The notes under the pieces are model-generated. The model saw nothing but the letters and a program-made list of their open reading frames with translations, ran no database searches and was not told the origin of the DNA. This document shows, in pieces, positions 33,070 through 47,597 of a stretch of DNA of 47,773 nt. Both the position numbers and the translations under genes were made by a program. Within the stretch, counting starts at the first letter, position 1; each line of letters begins with the position of its first letter. This DNA comes from Gammaproteobacteria bacterium (lineage in GTDB: Bacteria > Pseudomonadota > Gammaproteobacteria > GCA-001735895): positions 1 through 47,773 of the forward strand of contig JAOTTY010000002.1 of NCBI GenBank assembly GCA_029864185.1, read 5' to 3'.

Positions 33070-33760
33070 CCTGCTGCTGGCCACTTTGCTTGCCGTGCCC
33101 GCTGTCGCCGCGGACGTAACCCTGCGGTCCTTCAAGGCCAGCTACGATTTATTCAAGGGCGGCATGCACATCGGGACTACCGACCTCAGGCTGCAGCGCT
33201 CGGGCGAACGCTGGCGCTGGAGTTCGCTGACCAGGGCGCGCGGAATTTACTCGTGGTTTACAGATAAGCAACCCTATACCGAAACCACCTTTAGCCAGGG
33301 TGACAGCGAGGTTCGGTTACACGAAATCCTGATCGGCGACGCCGGCAAGGACCGCAACACCGAGGCGGCGCGTTTCGACTGGAATAACGGCAGGCTGGAG
33401 ATAATGCGCAAGGGCAAGCAACGCCAGTTGCAACTCGTCGACGGGGTTTACGATTTCCAGAGCATTCATTTGCTGGCCGCTGCCATGGGCCAGCAACAGC
33501 TCACCACGGCGACTGTCGATTTCTACCGCAAGGGCAGCCTGGTCAAGTCCCGCCTGGTCTACAGCGGACAGGACAGGGTCTCCGTCGACGGCCGTAGTCT
33601 CGAGGCAAACGTTTACGAACAGATTATGGTGCGATCGAACTCGAAGATAAAATACTATTACGATACCGGCAATCCGCTGTTGCCGTTGCGCATCGAAAAG
33701 CTCGAGTCCGGGGAAAGCCCGGTTATTCTGTCCCTGCGCGGGGTGGAATGGGACTTATAG
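33026..33760 (+). CDS. DUF3108-like exported protein
   Basis: Signal peptide (LLLATLLAVPAVAADV), then FKASYDLFKGGMHIGTTDLRL. It lies downstream of purN as in Pseudomonas. The listed start overlaps purN by 44 nt, so the start is uncertain. Confidence 0.6.
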   Translation: MNRPCSKNRSSIGLSLLLATLLAVPAVAADVTLRSFKASYDLFKGGMHIGTTDLRLQRSGERWRWSSLTRARGIYSWFTDKQPYTETTFSQGDSEVRLHEILIGDAGKDRNTEAARFDWNNGRLEIMRKGKQRQLQLVDGVYDFQSIHLLAAAMGQQQLTTATVDFYRKGSLVKSRLVYSGQDRVSVDGRSLEANVYEQIMVRSNSKIKYYYDTGNPLLPLRIEKLESGESPVILSLRGVEWDL

Positions 33761-34210
33761 GCGGGTAAAACCTTCCTCTCGTTGCAGCCTTTCGATCTCG
33801 GCAGGCGCGAACGGCACCTGCTCGATAAAATTCGGCAGGTCCGCCTGGTCGATATCGAGCATCCGCATCATGGTCTGGCAGGCCTTGATATCGATAATAC
33901 TGTCCTGGTCGAGCACCCGCGCGCGCTCCACCAGCGACTGGTTGGAGCGATAGTTGTTCTTGCGGAACAGCTGCAGCTCGTCCCCATGCAGCACGATCGC
34001 AATTTTTCCGAGGTCATCCGGCTTGAACAGCTTGCGCAGGTCCTCCGCGCGGTTGAGCACCACGTCCAGCTGTTGCGGGGAGCTGACGGTCACGCTGAAA
34101 ACGTAGCCGGGCGCCGTGGCCGCGTCCTGCGCGCAAACCCGCACCGGCGACAGGATGAGCAACAACAGGACAGACAGGAATTTTCCGAACACGCTAGGTG
34201 CTTCCGGCAA
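33755..34210 (-). CDS. DsrE/DsrF-like family protein with predicted signal peptide (tentative)
   Basis: The N-terminus FGKFLSVLLLLILSPVRVCAQD is signal-like. The body (IAIVLHGDELQLF...IDIKACQTMM) resembles COG1416/DsrE-like proteins. The start is ATG 34210 (overlapping pmbA by 17 nt) or GTG 34192. Confidence 0.5.
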   Translation of the reverse strand: MPEAPSVFGKFLSVLLLLILSPVRVCAQDAATAPGYVFSVTVSSPQQLDVVLNRAEDLRKLFKPDDLGKIAIVLHGDELQLFRKNNYRSNQSLVERARVLDQDSIIDIKACQTMMRMLDIDQADLPNFIEQVPFAPAEIERLQREEGFTRL

Positions 34211-37323: not shown

Positions 37324-37373
37324 TTACCTGACCCTGATTGAATTTACTGGAAATATCACTAAGTTATAGTGTC

Positions 37374-37886
37374 ATGGCGCATTCTACTAAAAAACTGGGC
37401 ATGATGTTCACTGCCGCGGGCTGGGTGCTCGGTTTTTTACTGCTGGCGCTGGTTTTTTCCAACATCCTCGACCGGCAAAATAATCCAAACCGCTCCGTGT
37501 CGACGCTGCAAACCGGGGCTTTTCAGGAAGTGGTGCTGACGCGAAGCCGCAACGGGCACTATGTTTTCGACGGCGAGATCAACCATCAAAAGGTAACATT
37601 CCTGGTCGATACCGGGGCCACGACCACCGCAATCCCTGCCGAAATGCAGCGCGCGCTGGGGCTGAAGGCCGGCCCCGCGACCTCGGTATCCACCGCGAAC
37701 GGCGTAACCACCGCCCGTCTGACCCGCCTGGACCAGCTAGCTATCGGCGATATCGAGCTTTTCGATACCAGTGCGACCATCATCTCGGGTATGGGCGTCG
37801 ACGAGGTCCTGCTGGGCATGAACGTGCTGAAGCATTTCGAGCTGGTGCAGCGCGGTAACGAACTGATTATCCGGCAATACCGGTAA
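37374..37886 (+). CDS. membrane-anchored retropepsin-like (clan AA) aspartic protease
   Basis: N-terminal TM segment (MMFTAAGWVLGFLLLALVF) and active-site motif FLVDTGATTTAIP. I chose the ATG at 37374. The track start at 37338 is a TTG. Confidence 0.75.
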   Translation: MAHSTKKLGMMFTAAGWVLGFLLLALVFSNILDRQNNPNRSVSTLQTGAFQEVVLTRSRNGHYVFDGEINHQKVTFLVDTGATTTAIPAEMQRALGLKAGPATSVSTANGVTTARLTRLDQLAIGDIELFDTSATIISGMGVDEVLLGMNVLKHFELVQRGNELIIRQYR

Positions 37887-38033
37887 AATAATGCCTTCCG
37901 CGGTTTGATTTTTCACGATTCCGCGAAAATTTTTACCTTTTTCTGAACTTTCTCGAAACTCGTTTTCTCTAAGCACGCGTAATGGGGGAAATAACCACTA
38001 CAAATATAGGTTTTCAAACTTGAGGATAATTTT

Positions 38034-38285
38034 ATGATTACAGCTAAAAAAACTACCGGAGTCGCCCTTGCCGCAGCCGCGGCTGCCATGTTTGCCGTTG
38101 CGCCGATGAGCGCGAACGCGGCCGAGACGGCGGGCAAATGCTTCAACGTCAATTCATGCAAGGGCACCAGCGCATGCGCAACCGCCACTACCAGTTGCGC
38201 CGGACAGAACTCTTGCGCCGGTCAGGGCTGGGTCAAGCGCACCAAGTCAGAATGCGAAGCAGCGGGCGGCAAGTTCGAAGCCTGA
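38034..38285 (+). CDS. bufA: Sec-exported Cys-rich RiPP precursor peptide (bufferin BufA-like)
   Basis: A GAGGA Shine-Dalgarno sits 7 nt upstream. The signal peptide is MITAKKTTGVALAAAAAAMFAVAPMSANA|AE. The 54-aa core has 6 Cys (KCFNVNSCKGTSACATATTSCAGQNSCAGQGW...SECE). It lies immediately upstream of DUF692 and DUF2063 genes. Confidence 0.7.
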   Translation: MITAKKTTGVALAAAAAAMFAVAPMSANAAETAGKCFNVNSCKGTSACATATTSCAGQNSCAGQGWVKRTKSECEAAGGKFEA

Positions 38286-38304: not shown

Positions 38305-38335
38305 AAAAATGCACCGACCGGATCGGTGCATTTTT
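38305..38335 (+). terminator. hairpin / candidate partial terminator between the precursor and modification genes
   Basis: AAAAATGCACCGA-ccgga-TCGGTGCATTTTT is a 13-bp perfect stem with a T-run. It lies 20 nt after the bufA stop and 48 nt before the bufB start. Confidence 0.5.
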
Positions 38336-38382
38336 ATGTCCGATCGATACAATTGATTTCCCTCGATCCGTGATGCTCGTCT

Positions 38383-39219
38383 ATGGCTGAATCCGCACAA
38401 AAACCCTTCCTCGGCTTTGGCCTGGGTCTGCGTGCGGAGCACTATAAGGACATCCTCGAACGCAAGCCGAGGGAAATCGACTGGTTCGAAATCATCAGCG
38501 AAAATTACATGATCGATGGGGGCAAGCCGCTTTATTATCTCGACGCGATACGCCAGGATTACCCGATGGTCATGCACGGCGTGTCGATGTCGCTGGGCAG
38601 CATGGACGACCTGGACCTCGACTACCTGAAGCAGTTGAAATCCCTGATCGAACGCGTCCAGCCGCGCTGGTACTCCGACCACCTGTGCTGGACCGGTGTC
38701 GACCACAGAAACATGCACGATCTGCTGCCCTTGCCCTACACCGAGGAGGCGATACGCCATGTCGCAGATCGTATCTCCAGGGTGCAGGATTTCATTGGTC
38801 GCCAGATGCTGATCGAAAACCTGTCCAGCTACGTTACCTATTGCGACGACACAATGCCGGAGTGGGAATTCCTGTCGGCGATTGCGGAACGTGCCGACTG
38901 CTACCTGCTGCTGGATGTCAACAATATTTACGTCAGCAGTTACAATCATCATTACGATCCGATCGAATACCTCGAAGGCGTGCCCGGATCCCGCGTCTGG
39001 CAGCACCATCTCGCCGGCCACAGCAACGAGGGCAACCTGATAATCGACACCCATGACGATGACATCATCGATCCGGTGTGGACCCTGTACGAGGAAACCG
39101 CGAGGCGTCTCGGTCCGGTTTCGACCATGATCGAGCGCGACGGCAATATCCCGGATCTCGACAGCCTGCTGCTCGAACTCGAGCGGGCGCGCAGCATCGC
39201 TGCACCTTTTTACCGGTGA
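38383..39219 (+). CDS. bufB: DUF692-family multinuclear non-heme iron oxidase (MNIO; BufB/MbnB-like)
   Basis: Family hallmarks run along the whole length: GFGLGLRAEHY, WFEIISENYM, HGVSMSLGS, SDHLCW, LLPLPYTEEA, ENLSSYV, EWEFL, LLLDVNNIYVSS, HLAGH, IDTHDD, MIERD. Confidence 0.88.
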   Translation: MAESAQKPFLGFGLGLRAEHYKDILERKPREIDWFEIISENYMIDGGKPLYYLDAIRQDYPMVMHGVSMSLGSMDDLDLDYLKQLKSLIERVQPRWYSDHLCWTGVDHRNMHDLLPLPYTEEAIRHVADRISRVQDFIGRQMLIENLSSYVTYCDDTMPEWEFLSAIAERADCYLLLDVNNIYVSSYNHHYDPIEYLEGVPGSRVWQHHLAGHSNEGNLIIDTHDDDIIDPVWTLYEETARRLGPVSTMIERDGNIPDLDSLLLELERARSIAAPFYR

Positions 39220-39224
39220 GTTCC

Positions 39225-40010
39225 ATGATCCGGCTGCGAGAATTACAACGACGATTTCAGGATTACCTGATTGGCGCATCCGACGATATCGAGCGCGACA
39301 TCGTCGGCAGCGACAACGCGCTCGCCGAGCACCGCCTCGCCACTTACTACAACGCGTATCGCATCCGCCTGATAGACTGCCTGGCGACAGACTATGCCGC
39401 AGTACAGAATTATCTGGGTCGCGAAGCCTTCGAGGAACTGGCGTTAGCTTATCTCCGCGAGTACCCGTCTACGCACCCGTCGGTACGCTGGTTTGGCAAA
39501 TCCCTGCCCGAATATCTGCGCACCCGTTACCAAGGCGAGGAGCGTGATTTCCTGCTCGAGCTGGCGCGCTACGAGTGGGCACAAACGATGATATTCGATG
39601 CCGCCGATAGCGCTGCGCTGGTTCAGCTCGACGACATGGCGCAGTTGCCGCCGCAGGACTGGCCGGATCTGCGCCTCCGCTTCAAGCCGGCGCTTACCTG
39701 GCTGGACCTGCACTGGAACGTGCCGCCGATAGAGCACGCGCTGAACACGGGTGACGAACCGCCGCGCCAGCAGCGCCTCGAACATCCGCAACGCTGGCTA
39801 TTGTGGCGCCGCGAGCTGAAAATCCACTGGCGCTCGCTCGAGGTACACGAGGCCTGGGCGCTGCAGCAGGCCGTCGACGGGGCGAATTTTGCCGCGATCT
39901 GCGAAGGCCTGCTCGAATGGGTCGACGCCGAACAGGTTGCGCCGGTCGCGGCCGGATTTCTCAAACAATGGATCAGCGACCAGCTGATCGTCAGCCTCGG
40001 CGATGACTAA
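39225..40010 (+). CDS. bufC: DUF2063-family partner protein (BufC-like)
   Basis: MIRLRELQRRFQDYL...LATYYNAYRIRLIDCL...YLGREAFEELALAYLREYPS is a typical DUF2063 N-terminal domain. The ATG at 39225 is 5 nt after the bufB stop. The track start at 39078 lies out of frame inside bufB. Confidence 0.8.
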   Translation: MIRLRELQRRFQDYLIGASDDIERDIVGSDNALAEHRLATYYNAYRIRLIDCLATDYAAVQNYLGREAFEELALAYLREYPSTHPSVRWFGKSLPEYLRTRYQGEERDFLLELARYEWAQTMIFDAADSAALVQLDDMAQLPPQDWPDLRLRFKPALTWLDLHWNVPPIEHALNTGDEPPRQQRLEHPQRWLLWRRELKIHWRSLEVHEAWALQQAVDGANFAAICEGLLEWVDAEQVAPVAAGFLKQWISDQLIVSLGDD

Positions 40011-40122: not shown

Positions 40123-43002
40123 ATGCCAAATCTTGACCTAAAACTGCAGGATCTCGATATCTTCCACGGCTTCATTCGCCGCCATATCGGCCCGGACGAG
40201 GCAGAAGAAAAGGCGATGCTCGCCGAACTCGGGATGGCGAGCATCGACGAACTGCTCGACAAGGTCGTGCCGGAATCGATTCGCCGGCGCAAGCCGCTCG
40301 CGGTCAAGGCCAGCCTGAGCGAGCGCCAGGTACTGTTACGGCTGTACGAGATTTCGATACGCAACCAGCTCTACAAATCCTTCATCGGCATGGGCTACTA
40401 CGGTACGCAGACCCCGAGCGTGATCGAACGCAACCTGCTGCGCAACCCCGCCTGGTACACGTCCTACACCCCCTACCAGGCAGAAATATCGCAGGGACGC
40501 CTGGAGGCGCTGCTGAACTTTCAGACCATGGTCAGCGACCTGACCGGCATGGAGCTCGCCAACGCCTCTATGCTGGACGAAGCCACCGCGGCGGCCGAGG
40601 CCATGACCATGTGCCATCGCCTTTCCAAGAGCAAGAGCGACGTGTTTTACATTGCGAATACCTGCCATCCGCAAACCATCGAAGTGGTCACCAACCGCGC
40701 CAGGCACCTGCATATCAAGTGCGTGATCGGGGATCCGTTTGCGGCGATCGACAACCCCGAACTGTTCGGTGTATTGCTGCAATACCCCTGCTCCACCGGG
40801 GAGGTCCACGATTACCGCGATCTGGTGGCGAAGATTCACGAAAAGCAGGGACTGGTCGCGGTCGCGGCAGACCTGCTGAGCCTGACGCTGTTGACGCCGC
40901 CAGGAGAATTCGACGCCGATATCGTGGTCGGCAACACGCAGCGCTTCGGCGTACCGCTTGGTTACGGCGGACCGCACGCGGCCTTCATGGCGACGCGCGA
41001 CGCTTTCAAGCGCTCGCTGCCGGGGCGCCTGATCGGCGTCTCGAAAGATAGCCGTGGCGAGCCCGCGCTGCGGTTGACGCTACAAACCCGGGAACAGCAC
41101 ATCCGTCGTGAAAAAGCGACCAGCAACATCTGCACCGCGCAGGCGCTGCTCGCGATCATGGCCAGCATGTACGCTGTCTATCACGGCCCCGGGGAAATTC
41201 GGCGCATCGCGCAGCGTGTGCATCGCCTGACCGTGCTGCTGGCCGAGGGCCTGCGCGAACTCGGCCTCCGGGTCAACACCAGGCACTATTTCGATACCAT
41301 CACGGTCGATACCGGCAACGCGACCGAGTTCATCATGGCCGCGGCACGCGCCAAGAAAATGAACCTGCGCCAGGTGGATGCGCACACGATCGGCATTTCC
41401 ATCGACGAGGTGTCGACCCGGGGCGACGTGACCCGCTTATACGATATCTTCACGCATGACCTCGGCCGGGACGTCTCGATCGACGAACTGGATACCAGGG
41501 TCGAGGCCGCGTTGCCGACGGACCTGATCCGCAACAGCGATTACCTGACCCACCCGGTTTTCAACAGCCACCATTCCGAAACCGATTTGATGCGCTACAT
41601 GCGCAAGCTCGCGGACAAAGACCTGGCGCTGGATCGCACCATGATTCCGCTCGGATCCTGCACCATGAAACTCAATGCGGCGACCGAACTGATACCTGTT
41701 ACCTGGCCCGGCTTCGGGCGCATTCATCCTTTCGTACCGCTGGACCAGGCGCAGGGGTACCAGCAGCTAATCGTCGAACTCGAGCAGATGCTGTGCGCCT
41801 GTACCGGCTACGACGCAATTTCGCTGCAGCCAAACTCCGGCGCCCAGGGCGAATATGCCGGCCTGCTGGCGATAAAGTCGTACCACGAGAGCCGCGGCGA
41901 GGGGCATCGTGATATCTGCCTGGTGCCGGGTTCCGCGCATGGCACCAACCCAGCGTCGGCGCAGATGGCGGGCATGAAGGTGGTGCTGGTCGGCAGCGCG
42001 AAAAACGGCAATATCGACGTCGACGATTTAACCGCCAAGTGCGAAAAACATCGCGATAACCTGGCCGCGATCATGATTACTTATCCTTCGACGCACGGCG
42101 TATTCGAGGACAACGTGCGCGAGGTGTGCCAGATAGTTCACGACCATGGTGGCCAGGTCTACATCGATGGCGCCAACATGAACGCGATGGTCGGCGTCTG
42201 CGCGCCCGGCAAATTCGGAGGCGACGTCTCGCACCTGAACCTGCATAAGACCTTCGCCATCCCGCACGGCGGCGGAGGTCCGGGCGTGGGCCCGATCGGA
42301 GTCAGGGAACACCTCAAGCCATTCCTACCGTCGACCAGCCAGAGTCACAACGGCGGGATCAACAAGGTTTCCGCGGCGCCGTTCGGTAGCGCCGGTATCC
42401 TGCCGATCAGCTGGGCCTATATTTCGCTGCTGGGCCGGCACGGGCTGCCGCAGGCGACCGCGACCGCAATTTTGAACGCCAACTACATTGCGCACAGGTT
42501 GAAGGAGCATTTCCCTATTCTGTATACCGGACCCAATGGGCTGGTCGCACACGAATGCATTATCGATACCCGTATCGTCAAGGATTTCGCGAGCGTCGAC
42601 GACATCGCCAAGCGCCTGATCGACTACGGCTTTCACGCTCCGACGATGTCGTTCCCGGTCGCGGGCACGCTGATGATCGAGCCCACCGAGTCCGAATCCA
42701 AGGAAGAGCTCGACCGCTTCTGCGAGGCGATGATCGCGATTCGCAACGAAATTCGCGAAATCGAGGCAGGCCGCATGGATCCAGACGACAACCCGCTCAG
42801 GAATGCGCCGCACACGGTCGACATGGTCTGCGCCGACGAATGGAATCACGCCTACAGCCGCAAACAGGCTGCCTACCCGCTGCCGTCGTTGCGCGACTAC
42901 AAGTACTGGTCACCGGTAGGGCGCATCGACAACGTTTATGGCGATACGCACGTAGTCTGCTCCTGTCCGCCGCTGTCTGCCTACGCCGACGACAACGCCT
43001 GA
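40123..43002 (+). CDS. gcvP: glycine dehydrogenase (decarboxylating), single-chain P protein
   Basis: 959 aa with the PLP-Lys region [19 protein letters not shown] and family-typical termini. Confidence 0.96.
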
Positions 43003-47050: not shown

Positions 47051-47216
47051 CGATTTCCGCGTCTGTAAACGAAACGCAGGCTCGATATGGGGTTTTGCGG
47101 CGCAATTTATTGCGATGGCGCCCGTGGCGCGGCGTATTTTATCGCCGCTCGTCCTGTGCAACTCTGCTGCGTTCGCCCGCGCCGCAGCACAGGCTGGGAG
47201 TCTCGTTAGACGCCTG

Positions 47217-47597
47217 TTACCGCGTTGCCTGTCCGCCCTGTTGCGCGCATTGCAGGATCAGTCCGGCCATGGCGTCGTTTTCGCCGAGATACTGCGACAT
47301 CTCGATGCTGATCCCGGGGTACCCCGCCCTGGCGCAGGCAAGTTCGCCGGGGATATCCTGCACCACGTGCCGCCCCGCGGCCAGAAAATAGGGTACCGCG
47401 ACAATTTCGGATGCGCCCAGTTCGATACAGCTGGCTATCCCCTGCTGGATATCCGGTTCGGCGAGTTCGAGAAAGGCGGGCAAGACCGCATCGTAATCGC
47501 CGCCGCCGAGTTCCTGCACCTTTTGCGCAAGCCGGCGAACCTCGTCGTTGGCGGACTGTTTACGGCTGCCGTGTGCGATTAGCATCATTACCTTCAT
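47217..47597 (-). CDS. cbiX: CbiX/SirB-type (small) sirohydrochlorin chelatase
   Basis: MKVMMLIAHGSRKQSANDEV...VAVPYFLAAGRHV is a family-typical His-containing motif, and the 126-aa length fits the short CbiX form. Confidence 0.8.
   Translation of the reverse strand: MKVMMLIAHGSRKQSANDEVRRLAQKVQELGGGDYDAVLPAFLELAEPDIQQGIASCIELGASEIVAVPYFLAAGRHVVQDIPGELACARAGYPGISIEMSQYLGENDAMAGLILQCAQQGGQATR

Follow-up and report, generated by a model that had tools for sequence, protein, structure and literature searches.

A six-Cys BufA2-type bufferin precursor in a buf2ABC operon of an uncultured gammaproteobacterium

Introduction

The buf2ABC operon of Caulobacter vibrioides (CCNA_02999-03001) encodes the BufA2 precursor on which the BUF_6/12Cys family was founded (PMC11626156; PMC12452194), and the cluster "lacks a bufD1-like gene" (PMC11626156). 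Its product, Buf2, differs from the unmodified peptide by -18 Da, or by -16 Da after reduction, and takes up four to six alkyl groups; each of the four central Cys accounts for -4.03 Da, while Cys I and Cys VI are unmodified, "likely forming an S-S bond" (PMC11626156). The same study described absorbance near 305 nm, induction by copper and protection against copper. A 5-thiooxazole has been assigned across the captophorin/bufferin MNIO subfamily (PMC13097082). According to a survey of bufferin clusters, sigma/anti-sigma genes accompany Buf1 and not Buf2 clusters, and the signal peptide has been suggested as part of recognition by BufB-BufC (PMC12452194).

Here we describe a locus of this kind in the window, a 47,773-nt stretch of DNA from an uncultured gammaproteobacterium. 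An earlier note on this DNA had drawn attention to a small secreted protein with six Cys, had left its class to a comparison with family models, and had proposed that closely spaced Cys become metal-binding heterocycles. We identified the precursor and its operon partners with curated family models, and compared the locus with its relatives across sequenced genomes.

Results

The precursor belongs to the BufA2 family

The gene and the parts of its product are placed as follows.

38022..38026, + strand: ribosome-binding site GAGGA, 7 nt 5' of the ATG; the TGAGGA block is invariant in 8 aligned loci
38034-38285, + strand: bufA2 precursor ORF, ATG start, 83 codons plus stop, 83 aa
38034..38120, + strand: predicted signal peptide, 29 codons, with a KK n-region, a hydrophobic core and AxA; predicted signal peptidase I site ANA/AE
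38121..38285, + strand: core peptide (54 aa, six Cys) plus stop codon; NF050166 match, Cys invariant

The uncut translation is MITAKKTTGVALAAAAAAMFAVAPMSANAAETAGKCFNVNSCKGTSACATATTSCAGQNSCAGQGWVKRTKSECEAAGGKFEA; with the stroke marking the predicted cut after A29, which leaves the 54-aa core, it reads MITAKKTTGVALAAAAAAMFAVAPMSANA/AETAGKCFNVNSCKGTSACATATTSCAGQNSCAGQGWVKRTKSECEAAGGKFEA. By rule, the N-terminus would act as a Sec signal peptide: it has K5-K6, hydrophobic residues 9-24 (Kyte-Doolittle 11-residue means up to 2.3) and A-N-A at -3/-1, and it contains no lipobox Cys. Re-deriving the core from the translation returned the six Cys at core positions 7, 13, 19, 26, 32 and 45 and the spacing C-x5-C-x5-C-x6-C-x5-C-x12-C, both as first reported, and the motifs NSCKG, TSCAG and NSCAG are all present in a core that has no His or Met. 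The proposed quasi-repeat (S/T)-S-C-(A/K)-G held as a repetition and failed at its first position, since the residue at -2 is N or T. The central Cys at core position 19 (TSACAT) has no Gly at +2. The core is predicted to have a monoisotopic mass of 5376.38 Da when unmodified and reduced, and of about 5358.24 Da when mature.

We ran the HMM check that the earlier note had named. The ORF passes NCBIfam NF050166 (Cu_RiPP_BufA2, "BufA2 family periplasmic bufferin-type metallophore") with 78.8 bits against a cut-off of 60, and ORF residues 10-81 align with positions 2-78 of the 79 in the model. A Pfam scan of the precursor returned no family at E <= 1, DUF2282 (PF10048) included. With NF050166 passed and DUF2282 unmatched, the class is settled as BufA2, the six-Cys class that the earlier note had set apart from DUF2282 precursors. 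Membership of DUF2282 (BufA1) itself was rejected on the same missing PF10048 match and on the count of six Cys, not four. Some homologues are flagged PF10048 in a precomputed table; on rescanning they gave no DUF2282 match and only a sub-threshold DUF7640. We also rejected the BUF_EGKCG or oxazolin (Lys-Cys) class, as the core has no EGKCG repeat. The single K-C of the core (GKCF) is Cys I of the BufA2 frame.

The ORF at 38034-38285 encodes a typical BufA2 precursor, its operon is a canonical buf2ABC operon, and we are highly confident that the best explanation of the locus is a bufA2-bufB-bufC operon whose precursor (BufA2) yields a bufferin 2-type RiPP metallophore (captophorin). In the sources searched, this gene and those closely related to it are unnamed or listed as "hypothetical protein", so the gain in annotation is that they can be named BufA2-type bufferin precursors, together with BufB and BufC; significance beyond annotation is little. 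PDB sequence searches returned no solved structure for BufA2 (by profile), BufC or a DUF2282 protein.

The six-Cys pattern is a family signature

A word-indexed search recovered 207 close relatives. A profile search of 1.84 billion cluster representatives (50% identity) gave 2029 at E <= 0.001, 969 of them at E <= 1e-10, and at least 506 loci were recovered from GTDB species genomes. The six Cys are invariant in an alignment of 31 homologues. The best 80 of the at least 506 loci contain 89 precursor ORFs, every one of them with the spacing 5-5-6-5-12 or 5-5-6-5-13; one or other spacing is found in 143 of 161 domains from the best 150 of the 2029 representatives, the remainder differing only in the third or last gap. 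C-x5-C-x5-C-x6-C-x5-C-x12 (or x13) is therefore a signature of the family, and the pattern is far beyond chance. Fifteen of these best 150 representatives carry two copies of the six-Cys pattern, and such two-domain, 12-Cys forms are as expected for BUF_6/12Cys. Two or three tandem BufA2 genes precede a single bufB in seven loci (L008, L029, L033, L038, L062, L068 and L079).

Hosts of the loci include Gammaproteobacteria, Legionella, Alphaproteobacteria, Burkholderiales, Binataceae and others. Legionella pneumophila subsp. fraseri, a named Buf2 host in the 2025 survey, is among the loci recovered by our genome scan. The genomes closest to the window are MAGs labelled only "Gammaproteobacteria bacterium".

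We compared the bufA2 gene with its counterparts in 7 related genomes, which share 76-79% DNA identity across the neighbourhood. Differences fell mostly at the third codon position (33-43, against 1-6 at the first and 3-5 at the second), and codon changes were 28-38 synonymous and 4-11 non-synonymous. The gene is under strong purifying selection, and the codon-position bias supports its being a real coding gene. Conservation is equally high in the signal peptide and in the core: across the 7 genomes, 0-3 of the 29 signal-peptide residues change, which fits the published suggestion that the signal peptide takes part in BufB-BufC recognition (PMC12452194).

Operon partners and genomic neighbourhood

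Two genes follow the precursor on the same strand, both intact, the first starting 97 nt 3' of the bufA2 end.

38383..39219, + strand: bufB, MNIO (DUF692) bufferin maturase, 278 aa; NF050167, 380.9 bits (cut-off 310); PF05114, E = 1.4e-112
39225..40010, + strand: bufC, DUF2063-domain partner (RRE-type), 261 aa; PF09836 (DUF2063), 74.7 bits (cut-off 27.2); HvfC sub-threshold

The bufB product is a BufB equivalog, passing the NF050167 (MNIO_BufB) cut-off and containing the ERD catalytic motif. Its active-site motif is E251-R-D253-G254, within MIERDGNIP; in the alignment with 3BWW, the closest PDB entry, D253 falls on the ERD of that protein. The precursor is thus genetically associated with both an MNIO and a DUF2063 gene. 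Across the best 80 of the at least 506 loci, bufB was found 3' of the precursor in 58 and bufC in 54, and Gamma- and Alphaproteobacteria, Legionella and others share the order bufA-bufB-bufC.

No DoxX gene lies 3' of bufC. The gene directly 3' of the operon is a 959-aa ORF at 40123-43002, which from its translation we take to be glycine dehydrogenase (gcvP), and it is followed by genes for a serine dehydratase and an MscS-type channel. Upstream are pmbA, darP/yjgA, a gene that we take to be aroC from reading its ORF translation, and a TIGR02281 aspartic protease; apart from aroC and gcvP, these neighbours were assigned by family scans, as were purM, purN, ffh, dxs, proS and others further away. 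The neighbours scanned are housekeeping genes or encode domains of unknown function, and we saw no copper, regulator or sigma/anti-sigma genes among them. The absence of sigma/anti-sigma genes near the operon agrees with the survey of Buf2 clusters (PMC12452194).

The aroC and gcvP translations served as tblastn queries on related loci. The order aroC-protease-bufABC is kept in the clade, with gcvP next in L001-L007. The protease (clan AA, retropepsin-like, membrane-anchored; 37338-37886, + strand) lies directly 5' of bufA and is syntenic in all 9 related loci with the aroC neighbourhood (L001-L007, L016 and L075); it is not adjacent to distant Buf2 operons. We rejected it as a member of the cluster, its synteny being limited to the close clade and bufA's own promoter intervening. 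Elsewhere in the window, two ORFs of about 150 aa, at 33755-34210 (- strand) and 47115-47582 (+ strand), have no Pfam match at E <= 1e-5, and the first has a signal-peptide-like N-terminus. In a Niveibacterium sp. MAG (L049, 3390-8000), a complete Buf1 operon sits directly 5' of the Buf2 operon on the same strand; it contains a DUF2282 precursor, an MNIO, a DUF2063 gene and a probable DoxX-like membrane protein.

Transcription signals around bufA

Two putative transcription signals flank the precursor gene.

37944..37972, + strand: putative ECF (sigmaE/AlgU-like) promoter TGAACTT-N16-CTCTAA, 5' of bufA, conserved
38305..38335, + strand: putative intrinsic terminator or attenuator hairpin plus T-run, between bufA and bufB, from direct folding

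The motif TGAACTT-N16-CTCTAA, which we take to resemble the sigmaE/AlgU ECF consensus, has this sole match in the window against 0.02 expected. In 7 related genomes its hexamers are invariant and the spacer between them is variable, and the motif is also present in L016; 8 of its 14 matches in 801 kb of loci sit directly 5' of bufA. A scan for sigma-70 promoters gave weak matches only. As Buf2 clusters are reported without sigma/anti-sigma genes, the conserved sigmaE-like promoter offers a testable lead on Buf2 regulation. Just 3' of the putative -10, the 5'-UTR contains a second conserved block, CGCGTAATGGGG..AACCAGTAC (37983-38007), which folds into a weak 6-bp hairpin with one compensatory pair; a search of Rfam returned nothing meaningful around the bufA2 gene, this block included.

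The hairpin between bufA and bufB folds at -22.9 kcal/mol (z = -3.9). Its stem is kept in 8 loci, with a both-sided change from A-U to G-C in L005. It was found by direct folding of the region and was not detected by a general terminator scan. Such a hairpin would yield precursor transcript in excess of that of the enzyme genes, and an excess of this kind is a common arrangement in RiPP operons. A conserved GATACAAT block lies 3' of the terminator (38346-38353) in 6 of 8 related loci; it could serve as a -10 element for bufBC, and no convincing -35 is present for it.

Assignment of the modified Cys

The earlier note had proposed that MNIO could modify up to four central Cys while the outer two form a disulfide. 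This reading gains support by analogy from Caulobacter Buf2, and from two comparisons of our own. We aligned the BufA2 family alignment with the DUF2282 bufferin of L049 (Pfam 85 bits) by hhalign, which gave a probability of 68% and E = 5e-5. Cys I is placed on Buf1 Cys I and Cys VI on Buf1 Cys IV, the proven disulfide pair of Buf1; Cys III and IV fall on the two Buf1 Cys that are turned into thiooxazoles, leaving Cys II and V as extra sites. An AF2 model of the precursor, weak at a mean pLDDT of 57.7 and used for secondary structure only, has strands at 33-37 and 66-70 and a helix at 71-76; it puts Cys I in the first strand, Cys VI in the helix and the central Cys in a low-confidence loop. 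This secondary structure agrees with the bufferin fold of the 2024 paper, where strand-to-helix disulfide geometry was described for BufA1 (PMC11626156).

The dense array of heterocycles that had been put forward as a departure from the four-Cys model is a published property of Buf2 and is not novel; with the Caulobacter Buf2 data already in print (Leprevost 2024), the proposal restates known biology. Its accompanying rule, that the substrate Cys are those followed by a small residue, does not hold, as the family typically has Lys directly after the Cys, N at -2 and G at +2.

One detail of the published numbering bears on comparison of positions. For the 61-residue Buf2 core, PMC11626156 gives the residue numbers Cys24 for Cys I and Cys50 for Cys VI. 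With Cys VI at 50, the invariant family spacing puts Cys I at 12 and makes Cys24 the third Cys, so the printed numbering is probably a slip. The roman labels in the same paper leave no ambiguity (I and VI are unmodified and the central Cys are modified) and are consistent with our hhalign mapping.

A Lys-poor precursor paired with an ERDG enzyme

Gadgil et al. 2026 describe the Asp of ERD as the catalytic base of these enzymes; enzymes of the Lys-Cys type have Phe as the next residue, and those of the Cys-Lys type have Asp, which is predicted to contact the substrate Lys, and FonBC rejects Cys-Lys substrates (PMC13097082). The window departs from the commonest family state on both sides of this contact. 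In the window and in L001-L007, the four central Cys are followed by K,A,A,A, and the commonest state in the family is K,K,K,K, so that the window precursor has one Cys-Lys dyad, at Cys13, not four. Across 144 domains, the proportion with Lys at +1 is 94% for Cys II, 59% for Cys III, 66% for Cys IV and 89% for Cys V; around Cys II, IV and V, the residues at -2 and +2 are almost always N and G, respectively. On the enzyme side, BufB has Gly where the Cys-Lys MNIO subgroup has Asp after the catalytic Asp. ERDG is found in the window, L001-L005, L007 and L016; the majority of BufA2-linked enzymes have ERDD, which accompanies 47 of the 67 precursors with a readable bufB motif downstream, and some have ERDA. 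ERDG occurs only with Lys-poor precursors in our sample, and ERDD also occurs with K,A,A,K precursors.

With three central Cys lacking Lys and Gly replacing Asp in BufB, the number of modified Cys could differ from four. We consider it unlikely that the Lys-poor clade with its changed BufB pocket, although of BufA2 type, has fewer than four modified Cys or a different modified subset. The K,A,A,A state of the clade, the restriction of ERDG to Lys-poor precursors, and the tie drawn by Gadgil et al. between the MNIO position and the flanks of the modified Cys, together with the rejection of Cys-Lys substrates by FonBC (PMC13097082), all speak for this reading. However, Cys II, IV and V keep their N at -2 and G at +2, Cys III and IV are commonly followed by Ala (26% and 19% of domains) even with ERDD enzymes, and the invariance of all six Cys in the clade argues for a role of each. 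The association also comes from essentially one clade, effectively one evolutionary event, and we therefore treat it as a lead and not as a finding.

A BufA2 product modified at its four central Cys stays the favoured reading. That it is instead a Cys-rich periplasmic mini-protein that remains unmodified and has three structural disulfides, with an MNIO adjacency that is incidental or vestigial, is extremely improbable: surveys note that many bufferin precursor genes are orphans with no MNIO gene next to them (PMC12452194), and bufB was not found downstream in 22 of the best 80 loci, in part through truncated contigs, but here bufB and bufC lie intact from 97 nt downstream and pass the curated and the DUF2063 cut-offs, respectively, gene order is conserved in every close relative, and the experimentally studied family member, C. 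vibrioides Buf2, is modified (PMC11626156).

Discussion

A model of bufferin production at this locus

As a proposed mechanism, the locus would work as follows. Transcription of bufA would start from its own conserved ECF-type promoter, and most transcripts would stop at the hairpin 3' of bufA, leaving more mRNA for the precursor than for the enzymes. In the cytoplasm, the iron- and O2-dependent MNIO BufB would work with its DUF2063/RRE partner BufC to oxidise core Cys 13, 19, 26 and 32 to 5-thiooxazoles, at -4 Da each, as modelled on C. vibrioides Buf2 and Buf1. The peptide would then be exported by its Sec signal peptide and, by rule, cut by signal peptidase I at ANA/AE. [quoted passage not shown]

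A further reading concerns the clade, which comes from sediment and water and is uncultured. It is conceivable, though we think it doubtful, that BufA2 there lost Lys at three of four sites in step with the Asp-to-Gly change in BufB, and that sigmaE/AlgU-type control replaced a copper-specific ECF. If true, this would be a natural case of substrate-enzyme co-evolution at the site that Gadgil et al. proposed for MNIO selectivity, and a hint that some bufferins respond to general envelope stress. With its Cys-Ala dyads and ERDG enzyme, the clade is a natural variant for probing the published model of how an MNIO chooses its Cys.

Comparison with known systems

Methanobactins (MbnA/MbnB/MbnC) are alike in being copper chelators made from a ribosomal peptide whose Cys are modified by an MNIO. 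They differ in their oxazolone-thioamide groups, in a leader peptide that is not a Sec signal, and in the partner MbnC, and they are secreted copper-acquiring chalkophores, unlike the bufferin type of the window. The window BufB scores 66 bits against the MbnB model, whose cut-off is 325.

The EGKCG captophorins (oxazolin, fontiphorin, gonophorin and bulbicupramide) are likewise copper-binding RiPPs with signal peptides and MNIO/DUF2063-dependent 5-thiooxazoles (PMC13097082). They carry Lys-Cys repeats and, unlike the window precursor, have neither the conserved six-Cys mini-protein fold nor its disulfide frame. Their MNIOs have Phe after the catalytic Asp (e.g. ERDF in 3BWW), whereas the window BufB has Gly.

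Bufferin 1 (BufA1, DUF2282/PF10048) is closer. Its scaffold is homologous to that of the window precursor, with K-C-x-G at Cys I, TSCAG and the W...C C-terminal part matched by hhalign, and the two share the MNIO subfamily, the partner protein, Sec export and a fold described as strand-loop-strand-helix. Bufferin 1 has four Cys and two heterocycles, whereas by analogy six Cys and four heterocycles are expected of the window type. DoxX is a usual addition in Buf1 operons, and sigma/anti-sigma genes are a frequent one (PMC12452194); all of these are absent from the window operon.

Caulobacter Buf2 differs from the window in host, in core length (61 aa by published description, against 54 aa) and in its promoter, which is SigF-dependent in Caulobacter vibrioides and putatively sigmaE-like in the uncultured gammaproteobacterium. 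Set against Caulobacter Buf2, the window precursor has Cys-Lys at one of its four central Cys; the window BufB has ERDG, and Asp251 is reported for Caulobacter BufB2. The two are alike in their Sec signal peptide (predicted in the window), their six-Cys core and the arrangement bufA-bufB(MNIO)-bufC(DUF2063) with no DoxX, and by analogy the Caulobacter chemistry, four electrons at each of four central Cys and a Cys I-Cys VI disulfide, is what would be expected of the window product.
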